Source: Escherichia coli (lineage in GTDB: Bacteria; Pseudomonadota; Gammaproteobacteria; Enterobacterales; Enterobacteriaceae). Taken from it: 64,000 nucleotides of DNA. Each line of letters opens with the position of its first letter. Positions within the stretch are counted from its first letter, which is position 1. Under the pieces are notes generated by a model, which saw nothing but the letters and a program-made list of their open reading frames with translations, had not been told where the DNA came from and made no database searches. Made by a program: the position numbers and the translations under genes. This document shows, piece by piece, positions 6,953 through 56,975 of the stretch. Location: assembly GCF_022846255.1 (NCBI RefSeq), contig NZ_AP025682.1, one strand, 5' to 3'.

Positions 6953-7130
6953 GCCGAACTCTCCGTTACATAACGTAAAGGCATTGTATCGCAGAAAAAT
7001 ATTTACGGGAGATGTAAAGCAAATTAAGTGAACTAATGCGCAACAAAAACGCAACAATAGTACAGGAGGAGAAAAAAAGGTGCGCCAGGAGACGCACCAG
7101 TTGTTGCAAAATCAGCACTGTGGGGCGTAA

Positions 7131-12518: not shown

Positions 12519-14063
12519 ATGGATGTCATTAAAAAGAAACATTGGTGGCAAAGCGACGCGCTGAAATGGTCAGTGTTAGGTCTGCTCGGCCTGCTGGTGG
12601 GTTACCTTGTTGTTTTAATGTACGCACAAGGGGAATACCTGTTCGCCATTACCACGCTGATATTGAGTTCAGCGGGGCTGTATATTTTCGCCAATCGTAA
12701 AGCCTACGCCTGGCGCTATGTTTACCCGGGAATGGCTGGAATGGGATTATTCGTCCTCTTCCCTTTGGTCTGCACCATCGCCATTGCCTTTACCAACTAC
12801 AGCAGCACTAACCAGCTGACTTTTGAACGTGCGCAGGAAGTGTTGTTAGATCGCTCCTGGCAAGCAGGCAAAACCTATAATTTTGGTCTTTACCCGGCGG
12901 GCGATGAGTGGCAACTGGCGCTCAGCGACGGCGAAACCGGCAAAAATTACCTCTCCGACGCGTTTAAATTTGGCGGCGAGCAAAAACTGCAACTGAAAGA
13001 AACGACCGCCCAGCCCGAAGGCGAACGCGCGAATCTGCGCGTGATTACCCAGAATCGTCAGGCACTGAGTGACATTACCGCCATTCTGCCAGATGGCAAC
13101 AAAGTGATGATGAGCTCCCTGCGCCAGTTTTCTGGCACGCAGCCGCTCTACACACTCGACGGTGACGGCACGCTGACCAATAATCAGAGTGGCGTAAAAT
13201 ATCGTCCAAACGACCAGATTGGTTTTTACCAGTCCATCACTGCTGACGGCAACTGGGGTGATGAAAAGCTAAGCCCCGGTTACACCGTGACCACCGGCTG
13301 GAAAAACTTTACCCGCGTCTTTACCGACGAAGGCATTCAGAAACCGTTCCTCGCCATTTTCGTCTGGACCGTGGTGTTCTCGCTGATCACTGTCTTTTTA
13401 ACGGTGGCGGTCGGCATGGTTCTGGCGTGTCTGGTGCAGTGGGAAGCGTTGCGCGGCAAAGCGGTCTATCGCGTCCTGCTTATTCTGCCCTACGCGGTGC
13501 CATCGTTCATTTCAATCTTGATTTTCAAAGGGTTGTTTAACCAGAGCTTCGGTGAGATCAACATGATGTTGAGCGCGCTGTTTGGCGTGAAGCCCGCCTG
13601 GTTCAGCGATCCGACCACCGCCCGCACGATGCTGATTATCGTCAACACCTGGCTGGGTTATCCGTACATGATGATCCTCTGCATGGGCTTGCTGAAAGCG
13701 ATTCCGGACGATTTGTATGAAGCCTCAGCAATGGATGGTGCAGGTCCATTCCAGAACTTCTTTAAGATTACGCTGCCGCTGCTGATTAAACCGCTGACGC
13801 CGCTGATGATCGCCAGCTTTGCCTTTAACTTTAACAACTTCGTGCTGATTCAACTGTTAACCAACGGCGGCCCGGATCGTCTTGGCACGACCACGCCAGC
13901 CGGTTATACCGACCTGCTTGTTAACTACACCTACCGTATCGCTTTTGAAGGCGGCGGGGGTCAGGACTTCGGTCTGGCAGCAGCAATTGCCACGCTGATC
14001 TTCCTGCTGGTGGGCGCGCTGGCGATAGTGAACCTGAAAGCCACGCGAATGAAGTTTGATTAA
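12519..14063 (+). CDS. malF: Maltose ABC transporter permease MalF, 514 aa
   Basis: ORF track 12504..14063; start at [26 protein letters not shown]; large periplasmic loop and EAA-type permease motif. Confidence 0.95.
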
Positions 14064-14077
14064 GGGAGATAACAAAA

Positions 14078-14968
14078 ATGGCAATGGTCCAACCGAAATC
14101 GCAAAAAACACGTTTGTTTATTACTCACCTGCTACTGCTACTTTTTATCGCGGCGATTATGTTCCCGCTACTGATGGTCGTCGCTATCTCACTGCGCCAG
14201 GGGAACTTTGCGACCGGCAGCCTGATCCCGGAGCAAATCTCCTGGGATCACTGGAAACTGGCATTAGGTTTTAGCGTGGAACAGGCTGATGGTCGCGTTA
14301 CACCGCCGCCGTTTCCGGTACTGCTATGGCTGTGGAACTCGGTAAAGGTCGCCGGGATTTCCGCGATTGGCATTGTGGCGCTCTCCACCACCTGCGCCTA
14401 CGCTTTCGCCCGTATGCGCTTTCCAGGCAAAGCGACGCTGCTGAAAGGAATGCTGATTTTCCAGATGTTCCCGGCAGTACTTTCACTGGTCGCGTTGTAT
14501 GCGTTGTTTGATCGTCTGGGTGAGTACATTCCATTCATTGGCCTGAATACTCACGGCGGCGTAATTTTCGCGTATCTGGGTGGGATTGCGCTGCATGTCT
14601 GGACCATCAAAGGCTATTTCGAAACCATCGATAGTTCGCTGGAAGAAGCGGCTGCGCTGGATGGTGCGACACCGTGGCAGGCCTTCCGCCTTGTCCTGTT
14701 GCCGCTGTCAGTACCGATTCTGGCGGTGGTGTTCATCCTGTCGTTTATCGCTGCTATTACTGAAGTTCCGGTCGCATCGCTGTTACTGCGTGACGTAAAC
14801 AGCTACACCCTGGCCGTGGGGATGCAGCAATACCTCAACCCGCAAAACTACCTGTGGGGTGACTTTGCCGCTGCTGCCGTGATGTCTGCATTACCGATCA
14901 CCATCGTCTTCTTGCTGGCTCAACGCTGGCTGGTCAACGGCCTGACGGCAGGTGGTGTGAAAGGTTAA
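14078..14968 (+). CDS. malG: Maltose ABC transporter permease MalG, 296 aa
   Basis: Translation [60 protein letters not shown]; EAA motif region [21 protein letters not shown]. Confidence 0.95.
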
Positions 14969-15039
14969 AGATGTTGTTCTGCCAATGTTATGCCGCTGCA
15001 CCCTCAACTTACGTTATCCCAACTTGTGACTGTTATTCG

Positions 15040-15061
15040 GCGCTCCACGGAGCGCCTTTTT
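15040..15061 (+). terminator. Rho-independent terminator after malG (ggcgctccacggagcgcc + T7)
   Basis: Perfect 7-bp stem GC hairpin followed by ttttttt at 15055..15061, lying in the 94-bp convergent spacer between malG and psiE. Confidence 0.65.
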
Positions 15062-15472
15062 TTACTCCCGCTTCAGCCGTTTCGAATTACATAACCACAG
15101 GGTGATCACCAGTAACAGGATCGCAGCCGAGTAGATCAACACATCCAGTGGCGATTTATGATCGACGATGATCAAGCGCACAATGGCGGTGATCCCAATA
15201 TAGACAAAGTAACGTAGCGGGAAGTGAAAACCGGACTGAAAGTACTTCACAATCAGCGCGATAAATTCGAAATAGAGAAAGTAAACCACCAGCCCTTCTA
15301 CCAGCTCATATTTGCTGGTTTGTTCTGGCGCGAACAGCACATCAGCCAGATGCACCGTTTCTTTGCCGAGGAAGACAACCAAAATCAGGCCGAGGCACAG
15401 CAGGCCAAGATTGAGTACGGTCTGCAAAATGGTGGAGATAAACTCCACGCGCGGACGAGAGAGTGACGTCAT
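15062..15472 (-). CDS. psiE: Phosphate-starvation-inducible inner membrane protein PsiE, 136 aa
   Basis: ORF track 15062..15601; start moved to [38 protein letters not shown] matching remembered PsiE; 4-TM protein. Confidence 0.9.
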
Positions 15473-15716
15473 AGCAGTACCTCCTTCACAGTGGCGAGCT
15501 TCCTGTATAACGCAAAAATGTGACGGGGATCTATATTTTTTGTGTATGTTTTGTTCAACCTGGATTAAGTGGGCATCTCCCATCAACATCGTATCTGGCA
15601 AAACACACTGTCCAAAAAATCACCCATTCAGGTGATTCCCAGCCACCAGCAATGCGCGAAAAATCGACAATGTTCCTCTGGAACAAATGAAACGTAACCT
15701 GATAAAGGTGGTAAAA

Positions 15717-25255: not shown

Positions 25256-25602
25256 AAATTCTCCTGTAAAACGCGGAATATACCGTACCTCTTAGCGGGG
25301 AAAAACAGGGTTATGCGGCAACGTCGAAATTAAATGTGATCTGCCACGCCTTTTATCACAAAAGTGTCTCCGGAAGTACGATGCAAATTTGCCTGGCAAA
25401 ATAAGAATAATCAACAAATTACGAATCGCTGCACACCTGTGCTGATGACTACTACGCAGAGAAACAAATGTGCAAGAGAAAGCGCTATTTCCCCCCATGC
25501 AAAGAGTGAAAAATCGCTTTGAAAGGCCATCATGATGGGGTTATATCAGATCAAGCGGTGAGAACGCGTATTTGCACAAATGTGCAGAACCAGGAGGCGG
25601 CA

Positions 25603-26550
25603 ATGGAAAACAGTGACGATATCCGTTTGATTGTGAAGATTGCCCAACTCTATTACGAACAGGATATGACGCAGGCGCAAATTGCGCGCGAACTGGGTAT
25701 TTACCGCACCACCATCAGCCGCTTGCTTAAACGAGGCCGCGATCAGGGAATTGTCACCATCGCCATCAACTATGACTACAACGAAAATCTCTGGCTGGAG
25801 CAGCAAGTGAAGCAAAAGTTTGGCCTGAAAGACGTTGTGGTGGTGTCAGGAAATGATGAGGATGAAGATACTCAACTGGCGATGATGGGGTTACACGGCG
25901 CGCAACTGCTGGATCGCTTGCTGGAACCTGGCGATATTGTCGGTTTTTCCTGGGGCCGCGCGGTGAGCGCACTGGTTGAAAACTTGCCGCAGGCGGGGCA
26001 ATCGCGGCAGTTAATTTGCGTGCCGATTATTGGCGGCCCGTCCGGTAAACTCGAAAGCCGCTATCACGTAAACACATTAACCTACAGCGCGGCAGCGAAG
26101 CTGAAAGGGGAATCGCATCTCGCGGATTTTCCGGCTCTGCTGGATAACCCATTAATTCGTAATGGGATCATGCAGTCTCAGCACTTTAAAACCATCTCTG
26201 CCTACTGGGATAATCTGGATGTCGCCCTGGTGGGAATTGGCTCACCGGCCATTCGCGACGGCGCTAACTGGCATGCGTTTTATGGTGGTGAAGAGAGTGA
26301 CGACCTGAATGCCCGCCAGGTTGCTGGCGATATTTGCTCGCGCTTTTTTGATATTCACGGCGCAATGGTTGAAACGAATATGAGCGAAAAAACACTCTCT
26401 ATCGAAATGAATAAATTAAAGCAGGCACGGTATTCCATTGGCATTGCCATGAGCGAAGAAAAATACAGCGGAATTGTTGGTGCACTGCGTGGAAAATATA
26501 TTAATTGTCTGGTAACGAATAGCAGCACAGCTGAACTATTACTGAAATAA
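25603..26550 (+). CDS. sorC: SorC-family transcriptional regulator of the L-sorbose operon, 315 aa
   Basis: ORF track 25519..26550; ATG at 25603 preceded by caggagg; N-terminal HTH (MTQAQIARELGIYRTTISRLLKRGR) plus sugar-phosphate-binding domain; heads a sorCDFBAME-like gene set. Confidence 0.85.
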   Translation: MENSDDIRLIVKIAQLYYEQDMTQAQIARELGIYRTTISRLLKRGRDQGIVTIAINYDYNENLWLEQQVKQKFGLKDVVVVSGNDEDEDTQLAMMGLHGAQLLDRLLEPGDIVGFSWGRAVSALVENLPQAGQSRQLICVPIIGGPSGKLESRYHVNTLTYSAAAKLKGESHLADFPALLDNPLIRNGIMQSQHFKTISAYWDNLDVALVGIGSPAIRDGANWHAFYGGEESDDLNARQVAGDICSRFFDIHGAMVETNMSEKTLSIEMNKLKQARYSIGIAMSEEKYSGIVGALRGKYINCLVTNSSTAELLLK

Positions 26551-26619
26551 AAATCTTCCCGATGTTTACCGTAATAAAAATTACGGCGGGTCCCTATTAT
26601 CTAAAATCAGGAGTCTGTT

Positions 26620-27426
26620 ATGCAAACGTGGTTAAATTTGCAGGATAAAATCATTATTGTCACCGGTGGCGCATCCGGTATTGGTCTGGCGATTGTAGAG
26701 GAATTATTAGCACAAGGCGCAAACGTACAGATGGTCGATATTCACGGTGGCGATGGTCAATATGAAGGTCATAAAGGCTATCAGTTTTGGCCGACCGATA
26801 TTTCCAGCGCCAAAGAGGTAAATCATACGGTAGCGGAAATTATCCAGCGTTTTGGTCGCATCGACGGTCTGGTCAATAACGCCGGGGTCAATTTCCCGCG
26901 TCTGCTGATCGACGAGAAAGCGCCTGCCGGGCAGTATGAACTCAACGAAGCTGCATTCGAAAAAATGGTCAATATCAACCAGAAAGGCGTTTTTCTGATG
27001 TCGCAGGCGGTGGCGCGACAGATGGTCAAACAACATGATGGCGTGATTGTGAATGTTTCCTCAGAAAGTGGGCTGGAAGGCTCAGAAGGCCAAAGCTGTT
27101 ACGCCGCGACCAAAGCCGCGCTCAATAGCTTCACGCGCTCCTGGTCGAAAGAGCTGGGTAAGCACGGTATCCGTGTGGTCGGTATCGCGCCAGGGATTCT
27201 GGAAAAAACAGGACTGCGCACGCCGGAATATGAAGAAGCGCTGGCGTGGACGCGCAATATCACCGTCGAGCAGCTGCGTGAAGGCTATACCAAAAATTCC
27301 ATTCCTATTGGGCGCGCCGGAAGATTAGCAGAAGTGGCTGATTTTGTTTGTTATCTGCTGTCTGAACGCGCCAGCTATATCACCGGAGTAACCACTAACA
27401 TTGCGGGCGGCAAAACGCGCGGCTAA
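26620..27426 (+). CDS. sorD: Sorbitol-6-phosphate 2-dehydrogenase-like short-chain dehydrogenase (SorD), 268 aa
   Basis: SDR Rossmann motif TGGASGIGLA and catalytic YxxxK (SCYAATKAALNSF); position after sorC. Confidence 0.8.
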   Translation: MQTWLNLQDKIIIVTGGASGIGLAIVEELLAQGANVQMVDIHGGDGQYEGHKGYQFWPTDISSAKEVNHTVAEIIQRFGRIDGLVNNAGVNFPRLLIDEKAPAGQYELNEAAFEKMVNINQKGVFLMSQAVARQMVKQHDGVIVNVSSESGLEGSEGQSCYAATKAALNSFTRSWSKELGKHGIRVVGIAPGILEKTGLRTPEYEEALAWTRNITVEQLREGYTKNSIPIGRAGRLAEVADFVCYLLSERASYITGVTTNIAGGKTRG

Positions 27427-27435
27427 GGAGGCTTT

Positions 27436-27843
27436 ATGGTCAACGCCATTTTTTGTGCGCATGGCAAATTAGCTTGCGCCATGCTGGAATCGGTTCAGAT
27501 GGTGTACGGCGATGCCAGGGTCGAGGCCGTTGAATTTGTGCCCGGCGAGAACGCCGGAGACATTGTGGCAAAGCTGGAGAAGTTAGTAAGCATTCACAAT
27601 CAAGATAAGTGGCTAATCGCCGTGGATTTACAGTGCGGCAGCCCGTGGAATGCGGCAGCGATGCTTGCGATGCGCAATCCTCGTCTGCGGGTAATCAGCG
27701 GCCTTTCTCTGCCGCTGGCGCTCGAACTGGTTGATAACCAGGACAGCATGAATGTTGATGAACTGTGTGAACACCTGACGCAAATCGCAAAGCAAACCTG
27801 CGTCGTCTGGAGACAGGTGGCAACAGCAGAGGAGGATTTCTGA
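27436..27843 (+). CDS. sorF: PTS mannose-family EIIA component for L-sorbose (SorF), 135 aa
   Basis: N-terminal AHGKLA region typical of EIIA-Man phosphohistidine domain; size and operon position. Confidence 0.85.
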   Translation: MVNAIFCAHGKLACAMLESVQMVYGDARVEAVEFVPGENAGDIVAKLEKLVSIHNQDKWLIAVDLQCGSPWNAAAMLAMRNPRLRVISGLSLPLALELVDNQDSMNVDELCEHLTQIAKQTCVVWRQVATAEEDF

Positions 27844-28337
27844 TGAACATTACGCTCGCCCGCATTGATGACCGCCTGATCCACGGCCAGGTCACTACCG
27901 TCTGGTCTAAAGTGGCTAACGCCCAACGCATTATTATCTGCAATGACGAAGTTTATAACGATGAAGTTCGCCGGACATTATTGCGTCAGGCTGCGCCACC
28001 GGGAATGAAGGTTAACGTGGTCAATATTGAAAAAGCCGTCGCGGTTTATCACAACCCGCAATATCAGGACGAAACCGTTTTTTATCTTTTCACTCGCCCA
28101 CAAGATGCCTTAGCAATGGTTCGCCAGGGGGTAAAAATAGGTACCCTGAATATTGGCGGTATGGCCTGGCGTCCTGGTAAGAAACAGTTAACCAAAGCAG
28201 TTTCATTAGATGACGATGATATTAACGCATTTCATGAGTTAAATAATCTTGGCGTCATACTGGATTTACGCGTCGTAGCGTCAGATCCCTCAATCAATAT
28301 TATCGACAAAATAAACGAACAGTTAATCGCAAATTAA
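27843..28337 (+). CDS. sorB: PTS mannose-family EIIB component for L-sorbose (SorB), 164 aa
   Basis: Conserved N-terminus RIDDRLIHGQV of EIIB-Man family; start overlaps sorF stop (ATGA). Confidence 0.85.
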   Translation: MNITLARIDDRLIHGQVTTVWSKVANAQRIIICNDEVYNDEVRRTLLRQAAPPGMKVNVVNIEKAVAVYHNPQYQDETVFYLFTRPQDALAMVRQGVKIGTLNIGGMAWRPGKKQLTKAVSLDDDDINAFHELNNLGVILDLRVVASDPSINIIDKINEQLIAN

Positions 28338-28402
28338 ATAATAGCGCCTGTGTACATATGCTTTAACAGGCAGGGATGACGACACTTAAAAGGTGACAAA
28401 TT

Positions 28403-29200
28403 ATGGAAATAAGTACCCTACAAATCATTGCTATATTTCTTTTTTCCTGTATTGCCGGAATGGGCAGCGTGCTGGATGAATTTCAGACTCATCGTCCGTT
28501 AATTGCCTGTACGGTGATTGGCTTAATTCTCGGTGATTTAAAAACCGGAATTATGCTCGGTGGTACGCTGGAATTGATAGCTCTCGGCTGGATGAACGTC
28601 GGCGCGGCGCAATCTCCGGATTCTGCACTCGCCAGCATAATCTCCGCCATTCTGGTTATCGTTGGTCAGCAAAGCATCGCCACCGGAATCGCCATCGCGT
28701 TGCCTGTGGCTGCGGCAGGCCAGGTGCTGACGGTGTTTGCCCGTACCATCACCGTAGTGTTCCAGCACGCGGCGGATAAAGCAGCGGAAGAAGCACGGTT
28801 TCGCACTCTCGATATTCTGCATGTCTCCGCGCTTGGCGTGCAGGCACTGCGCGTTGCTATTCCGGCACTGATTGTCTCGCTGTTCGTCAGCGCTGATATG
28901 GTGAGCAATATGCTGAGCGCCATTCCCGAATTTGTGACCCGTGGGCTGCAGATTGCTGGCGGTTTTATCGTGGTGGTCGGTTACGCCATGGTGCTTCGCA
29001 TGATGGGCGTGAAATATTTGATGCCTTTCTTTTTCCTCGGTTTCCTCGCAGGTGGCTACCTCGATCTCAGTCTGCTGGCGTTCGGTGGCGTCGGCGTGAT
29101 CATGGCCCTGCTCTACATCCAGTTAAATCCACAGTGGCGTAAAGCTGAACCACATCCCCAGACCACCACTATCACCGCCCTTGACCAACTTGATGATTAA
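28403..29200 (+). CDS. sorA: PTS mannose-family EIIC component for L-sorbose (SorA), 265 aa
   Basis: Multi-TM permease with EIIC-Man-like length, between EIIB and EIID genes. Confidence 0.85.
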   Translation: MEISTLQIIAIFLFSCIAGMGSVLDEFQTHRPLIACTVIGLILGDLKTGIMLGGTLELIALGWMNVGAAQSPDSALASIISAILVIVGQQSIATGIAIALPVAAAGQVLTVFARTITVVFQHAADKAAEEARFRTLDILHVSALGVQALRVAIPALIVSLFVSADMVSNMLSAIPEFVTRGLQIAGGFIVVVGYAMVLRMMGVKYLMPFFFLGFLAGGYLDLSLLAFGGVGVIMALLYIQLNPQWRKAEPHPQTTTITALDQLDD

Positions 29201-29210
29201 CGGAGCCATC

Positions 29211-30035
29211 ATGGAACAGAGAAAAATTACACGCAGCGATCTGGTGAGCATGTTTCTGCGCTCCAACCTGCAACAGGCGTCCTTTAACTTTGAACGTATT
29301 CACGGGCTGGGTTTTTGCTACGACATGATCCCCGCCATCAAGCGACTTTACCCATTAAAAGAGGATCAGGTTGCGGCGCTCAGGCGACACCTGGTGTTCT
29401 TCAATACCACGCCAGCCGTATGTGGCCCGGTCATCGGCGTCACTGCCGCCATGGAAGAGGCGCGGGCCAACGGCGCGGAAATTGATGACGGTACCATTAA
29501 CGGCATCAAAGTCGGTCTGATGGGACCATTGGCAGGAGTTGGCGATCCACTGGTCTGGGGAACGCTGCGCCCGATTACCGCCGCGCTCGGCGCATCTCTG
29601 GCACTTTCGGGCAACATTCTCGGCCCGCTGCTGTTTTTCTTTATTTTCAACGCGGTGCGTCTGGCGATGAAGTGGTATGGCCTACAACTCGGCTTTCGCA
29701 AAGGGGTGAATATCGTCAGCGATATGGGCGGTAATTTGCTGCAAAAACTCACCGAAGGCGCGTCGATTCTCGGACTGTTTGTGATGGGCGTGCTGGTGAC
29801 CAAATGGACGTCAATCAACGTACCGTTGGTGGTTTCACAAACGCATGCCGCCGATGGCTCCACCGTCACCATGACCGTGCAGAACATTCTCGACCAACTT
29901 TGCCCTGGTTTGCTGGCGCTCGGTCTGACGCTACTGATGGTTCGTCTGCTCAACAAAAAAATTAACCCGGTATGGCTGATTTTCGCCCTGTTTGGCTTAG
30001 GGATTATCGGCAATGCGCTGGGCTTCCTGTCCTGA
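29211..30035 (+). CDS. sorM: PTS mannose-family EIID component for L-sorbose (SorM), 274 aa
   Basis: ORF track 29181..30035; ATG at 29211 after cggag SD; EIID-Man-like hydrophilic N-terminus then TM segments. Confidence 0.85.
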   Translation: MEQRKITRSDLVSMFLRSNLQQASFNFERIHGLGFCYDMIPAIKRLYPLKEDQVAALRRHLVFFNTTPAVCGPVIGVTAAMEEARANGAEIDDGTINGIKVGLMGPLAGVGDPLVWGTLRPITAALGASLALSGNILGPLLFFFIFNAVRLAMKWYGLQLGFRKGVNIVSDMGGNLLQKLTEGASILGLFVMGVLVTKWTSINVPLVVSQTHAADGSTVTMTVQNILDQLCPGLLALGLTLLMVRLLNKKINPVWLIFALFGLGIIGNALGFLS

Positions 30036-30086
30036 TTCTTCGCCCCGGCACGACTGCCGGGGCCATCGCTCAACATGAGGTGGTTT

Positions 30087-31316
30087 ATGAAAACAACAGC
30101 TCTGCGTCTTTATGGCAAACGTGACCTGCGTCTGGAAACCTTTGACCTTCCTGAAATGCAGGAGGATGAAATCCTCGCAACGGTGGTCACTGACAGCCTG
30201 TGCCTCTCTTCCTGGAAAGAGGCCAATCTGGGTGAAAACCATAAAAAAGTACCCGACGATGTGGCGACCAATCCCATCATCATCGGCCACGAATTTTGCG
30301 GCGATATTCTGGCCGTGGGTAAAAAGTGGCAGCACAAATTCCAGCCGGGTCAGCGTTATGTGATTCAGGCCAACCTGCAACTCCCCGACCGCCCGGATTG
30401 CCCCGGCTACTCCTTCCCGTGGGTAGGCGGCGAAGCGACGCATGTGGTTATTCCCAACGAGGTCATGGAACATGATTGCCTGCTGGCATACGACGGCGAA
30501 ACCTATTTTGAAGGCTCGCTGGTTGAACCGCTTTCCTGCGTGATTGGCGCGTTCAACGCCAACTATCATCTTCAGGAAGGTAGTTATAACCACACGATGG
30601 GGATTCGCCCGCAAGGGCGCACGCTGATACTCGGCGGCACCGGCCCGATGGGGCTGCTGGCGATTGATTATGCGCTACATGGACCCGTTAACCCGTCGCT
30701 GCTCGTCATTACCGATACCGACAACGACAAATTGAGTTATGCACGCAAGCACTATCCATCAGAACCACAAACACTGATTCATTATCTCAATGCCGCCGAT
30801 GCAGCATTTGATACGTTAATGGCACTGAGTGGCGGTCACGGCTTCGATGATATTTTCGTCTTTGTGCCTAATGAAGGACTGGTGACTCTCGCCTCTTCCT
30901 TGCTGGCGACAGATGGTTGTCTGAATTTCTTCGCCGGACCGCAGGATAAGCACTTCAGCGCGCCAATTAATTTCTACGATGTGCATTATGCATTTACCCA
31001 CTACGTGGGCACGTCAGGCGGCAATACCGACGACATGCGCGCAGCGGTCAAATTGATTGAAGAGAAAAAAGTGCAGGCCGCAAAAGTGGTAACACATATT
31101 CTTGGGCTGAATGCCGCGGGCGAAACCACGCTTGAATTGCCTGCCGTCGGCGGCGGCAAAAAGCTGGTGTATACCGGGAAATACCTGCCGCTGACGTCAC
31201 TCACGCAGATTCAGGATCAAGCACTGGCGGTGATTCTGGCGCATCATCAGGGGATCTGGTCCGGTGAGGCGGAGCAATACCTGCTCGCCCATGCAGAGGC
31301 AATTTCCCATGATTAA
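30087..31316 (+). CDS. sorE: Sorbose-1-phosphate reductase-like zinc-dependent alcohol dehydrogenase family protein (SorE), 409 aa
   Basis: ORF track 30075..31316; ATG at 30087 after gaggtgg; MDR/zinc-ADH-like sequence (GHEFCGDIL, Rossmann GGTGPMG). Confidence 0.8.
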   Translation: MKTTALRLYGKRDLRLETFDLPEMQEDEILATVVTDSLCLSSWKEANLGENHKKVPDDVATNPIIIGHEFCGDILAVGKKWQHKFQPGQRYVIQANLQLPDRPDCPGYSFPWVGGEATHVVIPNEVMEHDCLLAYDGETYFEGSLVEPLSCVIGAFNANYHLQEGSYNHTMGIRPQGRTLILGGTGPMGLLAIDYALHGPVNPSLLVITDTDNDKLSYARKHYPSEPQTLIHYLNAADAAFDTLMALSGGHGFDDIFVFVPNEGLVTLASSLLATDGCLNFFAGPQDKHFSAPINFYDVHYAFTHYVGTSGGNTDDMRAAVKLIEEKKVQAAKVVTHILGLNAAGETTLELPAVGGGKKLVYTGKYLPLTSLTQIQDQALAVILAHHQGIWSGEAEQYLLAHAEAISHD

Positions 31317-31475
31317 TCGCGCTACTTAACTCTGCATGTCGCTGGCTGGTCGCCGCGGCAACTTCGCGACCTGATGTGCGGCTGATTGCTGAAGCGGCAC
31401 AATGTGCACGAGAAGGATAAAAAAACATCAGCGCCTTAAGGGGCGCTCAAATTGGTGGCAAAGTGCACATTGTTT

Positions 31476-31574
31476 ATGCCGGATACGGAATGAAGCCTTA
31501 TCCGGCCTACATAATCTTGAAAATTCAATATATTGCAGTTATCTGGTAGGCCAGGTAAGCGTAGCGCATCAGGC
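31476..31574. repeat. REP/BIME units between sorE and pepE
   Basis: atgccggatacggaatgaagccttatccggcctac and ggtaggccaggtaagcgtagcgcatcaggca. Confidence 0.7.
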
Positions 31575-31697
31575 AATCCTGTGTTTGTCATCAGTCTCAG
31601 CGCCTGTGCAATATGTGACATCGTGAGCCATGTCAGTAAGTGGTTAAATTCGCAGTGGTAGCATTCCTTCCGTGTTTTCTTACTAACCGGAGAAGTA

Positions 31698-39035: not shown

Positions 39036-39051
39036 CTTTTTCGCCTCTGAT

Positions 39052-40877
<1,826 letters not shown>

Positions 40878-45190: not shown

Positions 45191-45634
45191 ATGGTTATTA
45201 GTATTCGCCGCTCACGGCATGAGGAGGGGGAGGAACTCGTTGCGATTTGGTGTCGTTCTGTCGATGCCACTCACGATTTTTTATCAGCAGAGTATCGGGC
45301 CGAGCTGGAAGAGCTGGTGCATTCCTTTCTGCCGGAAGCACCGTTGTGGGTCGCGGTTAATGAGCGGGATCAGCCGGTTGGGTTTATGTTGTTAAGTGGG
45401 CAGCATATGGATGCGCTGTTTATCGATCCTGATGTGCGCGGCTGCGGCGTGGGCCGGATGCTGGTGAAGCATGCGCTCTCAATGGCCCCGGAACTGACAA
45501 CCAATGTTAATGAGCAAAATGAGCAGGCGGTTGGGTTCTATAAGAAGGTGGGCTTTAAGGTTACGGAACGCTCTGAGGTGGACGATTTGGGGAAACCGTA
45601 TCCGTTGCTGAATCTGGCATATGTGGGGGAATAA
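45191..45634 (+). CDS. yjaB: GNAT-family N-acetyltransferase YjaB, 147 aa
   Basis: GNAT acetyl-CoA binding motif (RGCGVGRMLVKHAL), size 147 aa, position next to metA. Confidence 0.85.
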   Translation: MVISIRRSRHEEGEELVAIWCRSVDATHDFLSAEYRAELEELVHSFLPEAPLWVAVNERDQPVGFMLLSGQHMDALFIDPDVRGCGVGRMLVKHALSMAPELTTNVNEQNEQAVGFYKKVGFKVTERSEVDDLGKPYPLLNLAYVGE

Positions 45635-45679
45635 GCTGCCCCCTATCGTGCTATCGTGCCTGCGTAAGCTGGAGCAGAC

Positions 45680-45744
45680 GCGCCAGCGTCGCAGCCGGCC
45701 TTTTTCTGCACCAGCGCAAAAAGGCCATCCTGACGGATGGCCTT
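45680..45744. terminator. Convergent terminator region between yjaB and rrfE (rrn operon terminator on minus strand; T-run after GC-rich segment on plus strand)
   Basis: Minus-strand hairpin aaggccatccgtcaggatggcctt followed by tttttgcgc, immediately 3' of 5S rRNA; plus strand ccggcc + ttttt after yjaB. Confidence 0.55.
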
Positions 45745-45756
45745 CTGCTTAATTTG

Positions 45757-55602: not shown

Positions 55603-56975
55603 CCTTGTGGGTCCTTACGCGTAATAGTGACCGGAAGCCAGAGGGTGAACGTTGCGCCTTTTCCCTCCTGGCTTGCGACCTGAATTGTACCACCGTGTTG
55701 TTCAACAATATTATGCACGACCGCCAGCCCCAGTCCGGTGCCTTCGGCTTTGGTGGTGAAGTACGGAGTGAAGATGGCTTCAAGCTGATCTGCCGCAATT
55801 CCCTTACCGCTGTCGGTAACGCTGATTTTCACACCCGTGCCGCTTTCGCTGGCCGTCACGCTAATCACGCCATGCTGACCAATCGCCTGAATAGCATTGA
55901 GATAGAGATTCAACAGGACCTGAGTCAGCCTGTCCGGATCGGCCTGAATTTCCGGTAATGTGTCGTTGGCGGTAAAGCGTAACTGGATCTCCCGGCTGTT
56001 TGCATCCTGGCTTACCAGCTGTAATGAGTGGTTAATCAGCGTGTTGAGATCCACCGCCTGCAAAGCCAGATGCGTTGGCTTAACCAGTTCCAGCAACTCG
56101 CTTACCACGCGGTTTAAACGGTCGGCTTCTTTCGCCATCACCTGCGCCAGTTGATGCGCTTCTCCCCCTGCTGGCGCGCGTTCGGCAAAGTATTTCGCCA
56201 GCCCTTTAATCGAGGAAAGTGGGTTACGGATTTCGTGGGCAACACCTGCCGCAAGATGCCCCAGCGCCACCAGCTTCTCTTTGCGCTTCATTTCATCTTG
56301 CAACAACTGGCGCGAGCGCAGATAGCGACGATACCAGAAGAATGACAACACGCTTGCCAGCAAGACCGTCGCCAGGGCGAAGAGGATAATCAGGGTGTTT
56401 CTCTGCTCACGATCTTCGGCACTCACAATATTACTGGCGTCGAAAGCGATGAAAATTGCTTGTGGTGTCGCGGCATACTGCTGCATATGGCGCATCCGGT
56501 GCATTCCAGCAGCAAACATCGGTTGAAACTGGCGATAAATTTCCAGAACAGGCTCACCGTCTGCGCTATCGATCCGCCGCCACCCTTCTTCATCTCCCGG
56601 ATGTAACTGCTGCATTTCCTGCGGGGAATAAAGCTGTTTTCCCACCATGCCGGAGTTGCTATGCATCACGATTGTTCCTTGTTCATCCGTGACCGCAAAC
56701 CAACGTACTCCAGGCTGCCCGGCCATTTCTTCCAGTAATGCCTGCTGCTGCGCATGATGCATGCGCATCCCCATGCCGACGCGCGAGCCGGATTCGAGAG
56801 CACGGATAAGTACACTGCCTTTTTCCAGCAGCGTTTGTCTGGCGGCTGCAGTCTCGCGCCCGTAATCGCGAATCACTGTCACCGCAAACAGCCCCACCAG
56901 CCCAACAATGACCACGGGGAGGATCGCGCTTAACCATTTAGCTAAAGAGTCTTTAGAACGTTGCATAAAACGCAT
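55599..56975 (-). CDS. zraS: Sensor histidine kinase ZraS (HydH), 458 aa
   Basis: Two TM segments flanking a periplasmic domain, H-box (AAGVAHEIRNPLSSIKG) and HATPase_c G-boxes (DSGKGI, GTGLGLAVV). Confidence 0.9.
   Translation of the reverse strand: MRFMQRSKDSLAKWLSAILPVVIVGLVGLFAVTVIRDYGRETAAARQTLLEKGSVLIRALESGSRVGMGMRMHHAQQQALLEEMAGQPGVRWFAVTDEQGTIVMHSNSGMVGKQLYSPQEMQQLHPGDEEGWRRIDSADGEPVLEIYRQFQPMFAAGMHRMRHMQQYAATPQAIFIAFDASNIVSAEDREQRNTLIILFALATVLLASVLSFFWYRRYLRSRQLLQDEMKRKEKLVALGHLAAGVAHEIRNPLSSIKGLAKYFAERAPAGGEAHQLAQVMAKEADRLNRVVSELLELVKPTHLALQAVDLNTLINHSLQLVSQDANSREIQLRFTANDTLPEIQADPDRLTQVLLNLYLNAIQAIGQHGVISVTASESGTGVKISVTDSGKGIAADQLEAIFTPYFTTKAEGTGLGLAVVHNIVEQHGGTIQVASQEGKGATFTLWLPVTITRKDPQG

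Follow-up and report, generated by a model that had tools for sequence, protein, structure and literature searches.

The xylE-less malG–psiE Junction of an Escherichia coli Genome: A Widespread and Probably Ancestral State of the Locus

malG and psiE Converge on a 93-bp Spacer

The locus described here lies in a 64-kb stretch of E. coli DNA (hereafter, the window). malG (14078–14968, + strand) is the last gene of malEFG and encodes, in an ORF of 296 aa, the permease of the maltose ABC transporter; psiE (15062–15472, − strand) encodes a phosphate-starvation-inducible protein of 136 aa, and its stop codon reads TTA on the + strand at 15062–15064. MalG showed 99.3% aa identity to its K-12 counterpart (97.5% nt identity for malG), and PsiE was identical to K-12 PsiE (100% aa identity; 99.3% nt identity for psiE). 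The original prediction that these two genes are directly convergent was borne out by the ORF list, by the sequence and by the annotation of strain 104, which is 99.8% identical to the window over 2 kb and in which PGAP names malG and psiE, with equal spacing, in the gene order malF, malG, psiE, “periplasmic protein”, and yjbH; the annotation of strain 042 also names psiE. The stop-to-stop spacer (14969–15061) measures 93 bp, a correction of the 94 bp given initially. On the far side of psiE, the psiE–yjbT intergenic region of the window contains 48 bp (15567–15615) unrelated to K-12; the K-12 counterpart is ~103 bp long and includes a REP-like palindrome (GCCGGATAAGCCGCGCC...GGCGCATCCGGC).

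The Spacer Encodes the MalH sRNA and Its Terminator

A single terminator hairpin had been proposed to occupy the spacer; the terminator in fact fills ~25 of the 93 bp, and the remainder is the body of the sRNA MalH (14961–15063, + strand), which derives from the malG 3′ UTR and reaches from the final 8 nt of malG through its stop codon to the terminator. This segment is identical (103/103 nt) to the K-12 ncRNA malH (b4807), which also overlaps malG by 8 nt, i.e., the placement in the window is equivalent. A search of positions 14500–15700 against Rfam at E ≤ 1 returned no match, so the identification of MalH rests on the K-12 annotation and on the published description of MalH as a 104-nt, 3′ UTR-derived, Hfq-associated sRNA in E. 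coli K-12 (Iosub et al., RNA Biol 2020/21, PMC8081044). MalH base-pairs with ompC and ompA and lowers the level of MicA, which tunes LamB; accumulation of MalH in a processed, Hfq-bound form, with regulation of ompC, ompA, and MicA, is known for K-12 only (PMC8081044). In the window, MalH and its terminator are intact and abut psiE. MalH would here be released from malEFG transcripts and act on porin mRNAs and MicA as it does in K-12. A seed-like block, GCC(A/G)CTGCA(A)CCCTCAACTT, is kept across genera. The window and K-12 thus share the position of MalH, its sequence, and an identical Rho-independent terminator, a 3′ end of the Hfq-binding type; they differ in what follows, since the K-12 terminator is succeeded by the xylE promoter region, whereas the terminator in the window runs into the psiE stop codon.

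The intrinsic terminator of malEFG and MalH (15039–15063, + strand) consists of the hairpin GGCGCTC-CACG-GAGCGCC at 15039–15056 and a run of seven T (T7) at 15057–15063. Terminator scanning and folding assigned the 18-nt hairpin a 7-bp stem with six G-C pairs and an energy of −14.7 kcal/mol; the 93-nt spacer as a whole folded no better than shuffled sequences (z = −1.07). The last two T of the MalH T7 are also the first two bases of the complement of the psiE stop codon. Of 76 loci, 65 have, downstream of malG, a perfectly paired stem of 7 bp or longer and, after it, a run of five or more T; the stem sequence varies in a compensatory manner, as GGCGCTC/GAGCGCC (41), GGCGGCC/GGCCGCC (12), and AGCGGCC/GGCCGCT (5). 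As with other terminator hairpins found between convergent genes, one G+C-rich hairpin is located between two convergent stop codons, and the psiE stop codon stands between an A-run and a T-run; unlike in those cases, the U-run here follows the stem only in the malG/MalH direction. Read on the psiE strand, an A-run precedes the terminator stem and GAAUAACAG comes after it, and the terminator scan called no terminator-like site on the − strand of the junction; bidirectional termination is therefore not supported.

The 1.8-kb xylE Segment of K-12 Is Missing from the Junction

The original placement of xylE between malG and psiE in K-12 proved correct: the annotation of MG1655 gives the order malG, malH (ncRNA, b4807), xylE (b4031), and psiE, so that malG and psiE are not adjacent in that reference. 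The product of xylE is a low-affinity D-xylose:H+ symporter of the MFS sugar porter family. The K-12 stop-to-stop gap between malG and psiE is 1,890 bp, as compared to 93 bp in the window, a difference of 1,797 bp. Pairwise BLAST resolved this excess into 1,792 bp of unique sequence and a 5-T repeat, both missing from the window: positions 14000–15063 match K-12 through the final base of malH, and the match resumes from window position 15059 onward with the five T's ahead of the K-12 psiE stop codon, the two breakpoints overlapping by five T (15059–15063). The unoccupied xylE insertion site accordingly maps to 15057–15063, the K-12 1,792 bp and T5 repeat falling inside the T-run. Besides xylE, the K-12-only segment is made up of 276 bp of upstream sequence and, on the downstream side, 43 bp with the xylE terminator hairpin; its unique part is flanked by T7 and T5 runs. 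No ORF for a D-xylose:H+ symporter of the MFS (~491 aa) is present between malG and psiE in the window, the K-12 pairwise alignment left no xylE-derived base at the window junction, and tblastn with K-12 XylE against all 64 kb of the window found no homologue, the best alignment covering 34 aa at E = 0.95; the predicted absence of a xylE-sized gene from the junction thus holds. The flanking genes, their orientation, and the flanking sequences are as in K-12, and the difference between the two loci is that the window is without the 1.8-kb xylE cassette.

Absence of xylE Is Common in E. coli

The absence of xylE had been regarded as strain-specific. This was not upheld: in our population sample of 5,426 complete E. 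coli genomes, malG and psiE are contiguous, as in the window, in 1,785, including O25b:H4-ST131 EC958 and strain 042, the latter with a spacer identical to that of the window. The 86-bp junction sequence itself was found in 1,771 of the 5,426 genomes, in three allele classes that match the query at 100%, 98.8%, and 97.7% identity and all show an equally clean junction. Collapse of the region through an assembly or sequencing artefact is hardly conceivable, and was ruled out as an explanation, given the same junction in these 1,771–1,785 independent complete genomes and in other species.

xylE was detected in 3,638 of the 5,426 genomes, nearly always as a single copy, and the full K-12-type malG-xylE-psiE block in 3,618; carriers include K-12, O157:H7, O26:H11, and O111:H8. 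A location of xylE elsewhere in the genome is thus possible in at most ~20 genomes, and several of these have IS1-disrupted or truncated copies. With 1,785 genomes showing the junction and 3,638 showing xylE (3,618 of them at the locus), the empty and the xylE-bearing states are essentially complementary, lineage-level alleles.

Two further differences from K-12 bear on the lineage of the window. Between aceK and iclR (39042–39065), the window lacks the 2.2 kb that contain arpA in K-12 (b4017, named espL4 by PGAP), and it also lacks yjaA (b4011), for which the window has ~121 bp (45629–45750) between rrfE and yjaB as compared to 519 bp in K-12. In Clermont typing, arpA-negative status is a phylogroup marker (B2/F/G), and we take the combination of arpA-negative and yjaA-negative to indicate phylogroup F or G under this scheme, which suggests that the window strain belongs to an F/G-like phylogroup. 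The phylogroups of the other strains (042, EC958, O157, and O26) are presumed ones; we take K-12 to belong to A, O26/O111 to B1, and O157:H7 to E, and we presume that strains of D and B2 are among those without xylE. Equating xylE absence with the arpA-negative phylogroups was tried and rejected, since the counts differ, with no arpA match in ~1,320 of the 5,426 genomes as compared to 1,788 genomes without xylE. This gap is explained in part by strains such as 042, which is xylE-less and arpA-positive (annotated as espL4); the larger number of xylE-less than of arpA-less genomes fits an absence of xylE in the arpA-positive phylogroup D as well.

The Empty Junction Predominates among the Sampled Enterobacteriaceae

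Scanning species-representative genomes for PsiE yielded 80 loci. E. coli, Shigella, E. fergusonii, and Salmonella have no representative among them, although PsiE from these should rank with the closest, and E. marmotae and E. ruysiae are missing as well, so that the outgroup sample is incomplete; 75 of the 80 loci contain complete malG and psiE genes. xylE was missing from 66 of the 75 Enterobacteriaceae loci, and in 49 of these 66 a T-run directly adjoins the psiE stop. In E. albertii, E. whittamii, Escherichia sp. E1V33, and Escherichia sp. MOD1-EC7003, the gap between malG and psiE is 93–94 bp and the spacer is nearly base-for-base that of the window, including the hairpin, the T-run, and the psiE 3′ end (ACTCCCGC/ATTCCCGC). 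This architecture was also seen in Enterobacter, Citrobacter koseri, Leclercia, Silvania, Trabulsiella, Kluyvera, and others: there, too, the spacer combines a conserved GCCACTGCAACCCTCAACTT block, ACTTGTGACTGTT, and a G+C hairpin with a T-run that merges into the psiE stop codon. That the U-run of MalH merges with the psiE stop codon in many genera could reflect a functional coupling of the two convergent units, a reading that we regard as improbable and that is drawn from this conservation. If it were true, read-through from psiE, whose strand has the hairpin without a U-run, would for example be antisense to MalH and to the 3′ end of malG, the control of psiE by phosphate starvation and cAMP-CRP would be tied to an sRNA of the maltose regulon, and psiE would have been uncoupled from MalH when the A/B1/E lineage received xylE.

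Among the sampled loci, xylE was located between malG and psiE only in eight loci of the C. freundii complex and in K. oxytoca. The right boundary is alike in these loci, where the psiE stop codon is joined to the hairpin and T-run of xylE, and the left boundary falls directly after the MalH terminator; E. coli shows ~55 extra bp at this point, and K. oxytoca has additional sequence. The K. oxytoca locus has a gap of 2,228 bp with xylE, and K. michiganensis, K. grimontii, and K. pneumoniae are without xylE. In K. oxytoca, the MalH-like terminator is followed by 16 nt that duplicate the 3′ end of Klebsiella psiE (TTATTCGCGTTTCAGG), ~170 bp of unrelated sequence, and the xylE promoter region; this configuration suggests that K. 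oxytoca may have acquired xylE through an illegitimate event. A longer psiE duplicate in the K. oxytoca insert was considered and dismissed, as the BLAST match extends over only ~16 nt, the TTATTCGCGTTTCAGG copy. In C. braakii, xylE is degraded: the gap of 382 bp keeps its upstream region and two short fragments from its interior, together with its 3′ end and terminator. Here a member of the C. freundii complex has lost xylE independently and imprecisely; no such remnant is present in the window.

Several Klebsiella and Kosakonia loci, that of K. oxytoca among them, carry ~125-bp elements with GTGACTGGGGTGAGCG in the malG 3′ UTR, which separate the conserved MalH-like block from the malG stop codon and lengthen the gap to 190–340 bp; we take these elements to be ERIC-like.

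Gain of xylE Would Be the Most Parsimonious Polarity

The window very probably represents an ancestral, never-interrupted convergence of malEFG and psiE, with K-12-type strains carrying a xylE insertion. The empty site in the outgroup Escherichia and in 66 of the 75 Enterobacteriaceae loci points to the xylE-bearing arrangement as the inserted state, and gain of xylE in E. coli, rather than loss, would be the most parsimonious polarity from these sequence comparisons; the loss in the window strain that the original prediction implied is probably wrong, considering that the site is empty in four non-coli Escherichia as well as in most Enterobacteriaceae. In the ancestral state, the spacer formed by the malG 3′ UTR would have encoded an Hfq-dependent MalH, with the terminator U-run entering the psiE stop codon. 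A cassette of ~1.8 kb, consisting of a promoter region, xylE, and its own terminator hairpin with T-run, would have been inserted into the T-run of MalH in the lineage of K-12 (A), O26/O111 (B1), and O157:H7 (E), and, separately, a comparable insertion is present in the Citrobacter freundii complex and Klebsiella oxytoca. The window strain, like strains of B2 and D, would never have received the xylE cassette.

Secondary deletion would reverse this order of events, an ancestor with xylE having lost exactly the cassette when the T7 of MalH and the T5 of the xylE terminator mispaired by slippage or underwent illegitimate recombination. A 5-nt T microhomology is available at both ends of the K-12-specific segment, and the divergence of xylE between genera, as deep as that of core genes, would be compatible with an old xylE at the locus. 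Such a deletion, however, must have recreated, repeatedly and with base precision, an arrangement that four other Escherichia species and dozens of other genera possess; the only clear xylE loss that we observed, in C. braakii, was imprecise, with 382 bp retained, and none of the three E. coli junction allele classes is less clean than the others. We consider a precise deletion improbable.

At synonymous sites, the xylE of K-12 has diverged from that of Citrobacter or K. oxytoca (dS of ~1.05–1.27) about as far as malG and yjbH have (0.9–1.3), and no recent donor of the E. coli xylE could be named, the divergence being as deep as in core genes. At dS values near saturation, ancient vertical presence with many losses and transfer between genera cannot be distinguished; an old presence of xylE at the locus, with repeated loss, is possible.

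The empty site in the window might also have been regained, within a xylE-bearing lineage, by homologous recombination with DNA from xylE-less E. coli; the junction would then be of ancestral descent without an unbroken vertical inheritance. malG and psiE provide long, nearly identical flanks for such an allelic replacement, recombination is frequent in E. coli, and more ancient recombination has been reported for the FGB2 lineage (PMC6896753). Against this, nothing in the data demands a replacement; the absence of xylE is common to D, B2, and F/G-like genomes, and the window is 95–98% identical to K-12 across its 64 kb, an ordinary divergence between phylogroups, with no local discontinuity at the junction. 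We judge this explanation very unlikely. Import of the allele from another species is also contradicted by the flanks, which are ordinary E. coli alleles (97.5% for malG and 99.3% for psiE, as compared to 92–97% nt identity to K-12 for other Escherichia).

The insertion of xylE that we favour for K-12-type strains agrees with a pangenome study that divided E. coli into the lineages D, EB1A, and FGB2 and found xylE among the carbohydrate transporters enriched in the B1A sublineage of EB1A, with lineage-specific gains of sugar-transport genes in EB1A/B1A that comprise xylE, bgl, and mng (PMC6896753). Our examples agree in that strains of A, B1, and E have xylE and those of D and B2, together with the F/G-like window, are without it; they differ in that O157:H7 (E) has xylE here, so that the gain seems to be EB1A-wide rather than confined to B1A, and in that the insertion site is not described in that study. 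The presence or absence of xylE is thus an already known lineage-wide polymorphism, and the sRNA in the spacer is also known; our literature search found no paper describing the malG–psiE junction.

Implications for Xylose Uptake

XylE is a low-affinity H+ symporter and XylFGH a high-affinity ABC system for xylose (PMC8534289). The genes xylFGH, for the main high-affinity system, are located outside the 64-kb window, and the window strain would take up xylose through XylFGH and promiscuous transporters; an effect of xylE absence on pentose transport, as originally proposed, is plausible. A third of E. coli, including the ExPEC-rich groups B2, D, F, and G, is without the low-affinity xylose/H+ symporter. 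K-12 should not serve as the default map at this locus, as it very probably holds a derived insertion between malG and psiE, a point that is useful for the engineering of strains for pentose use and for the reading of gain and loss calls in pangenomes. The finding itself matters little; it is real but ordinary, and opens no new question.

Other Differences between the Window and K-12

A 6.3-kb segment between rluF and pepE (25290–31608) is absent from K-12 and contains seven ORFs on the + strand, which match a DeoR/SorC-type regulator, a sorbitol-6-phosphate dehydrogenase, the IIA, IIB, IIC, and IID components of a mannose/fructose/sorbose PTS, and a Zn-dehydrogenase. The equivalent block in E. 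coli 042 is annotated with sorE (L-sorbose 1-phosphate reductase), and the segment is the sor operon for L-sorbose, already known as an accessory island. Between malM and ubiC (7058–7072), K-12 has 1,867 bp more than the window, corresponding to the yjbI pseudogene, which is missing in the window; its counterpart in 042 is an intact gene annotated as encoding a “SopA family protein”. Finally, ~285 bp inside zraS (56399–56684) were not aligned to K-12 by megablast, where 306 bp are found at K-12 positions 4202217–4202523; this zraS segment is locally divergent, with a length difference of 21 bp relative to K-12.
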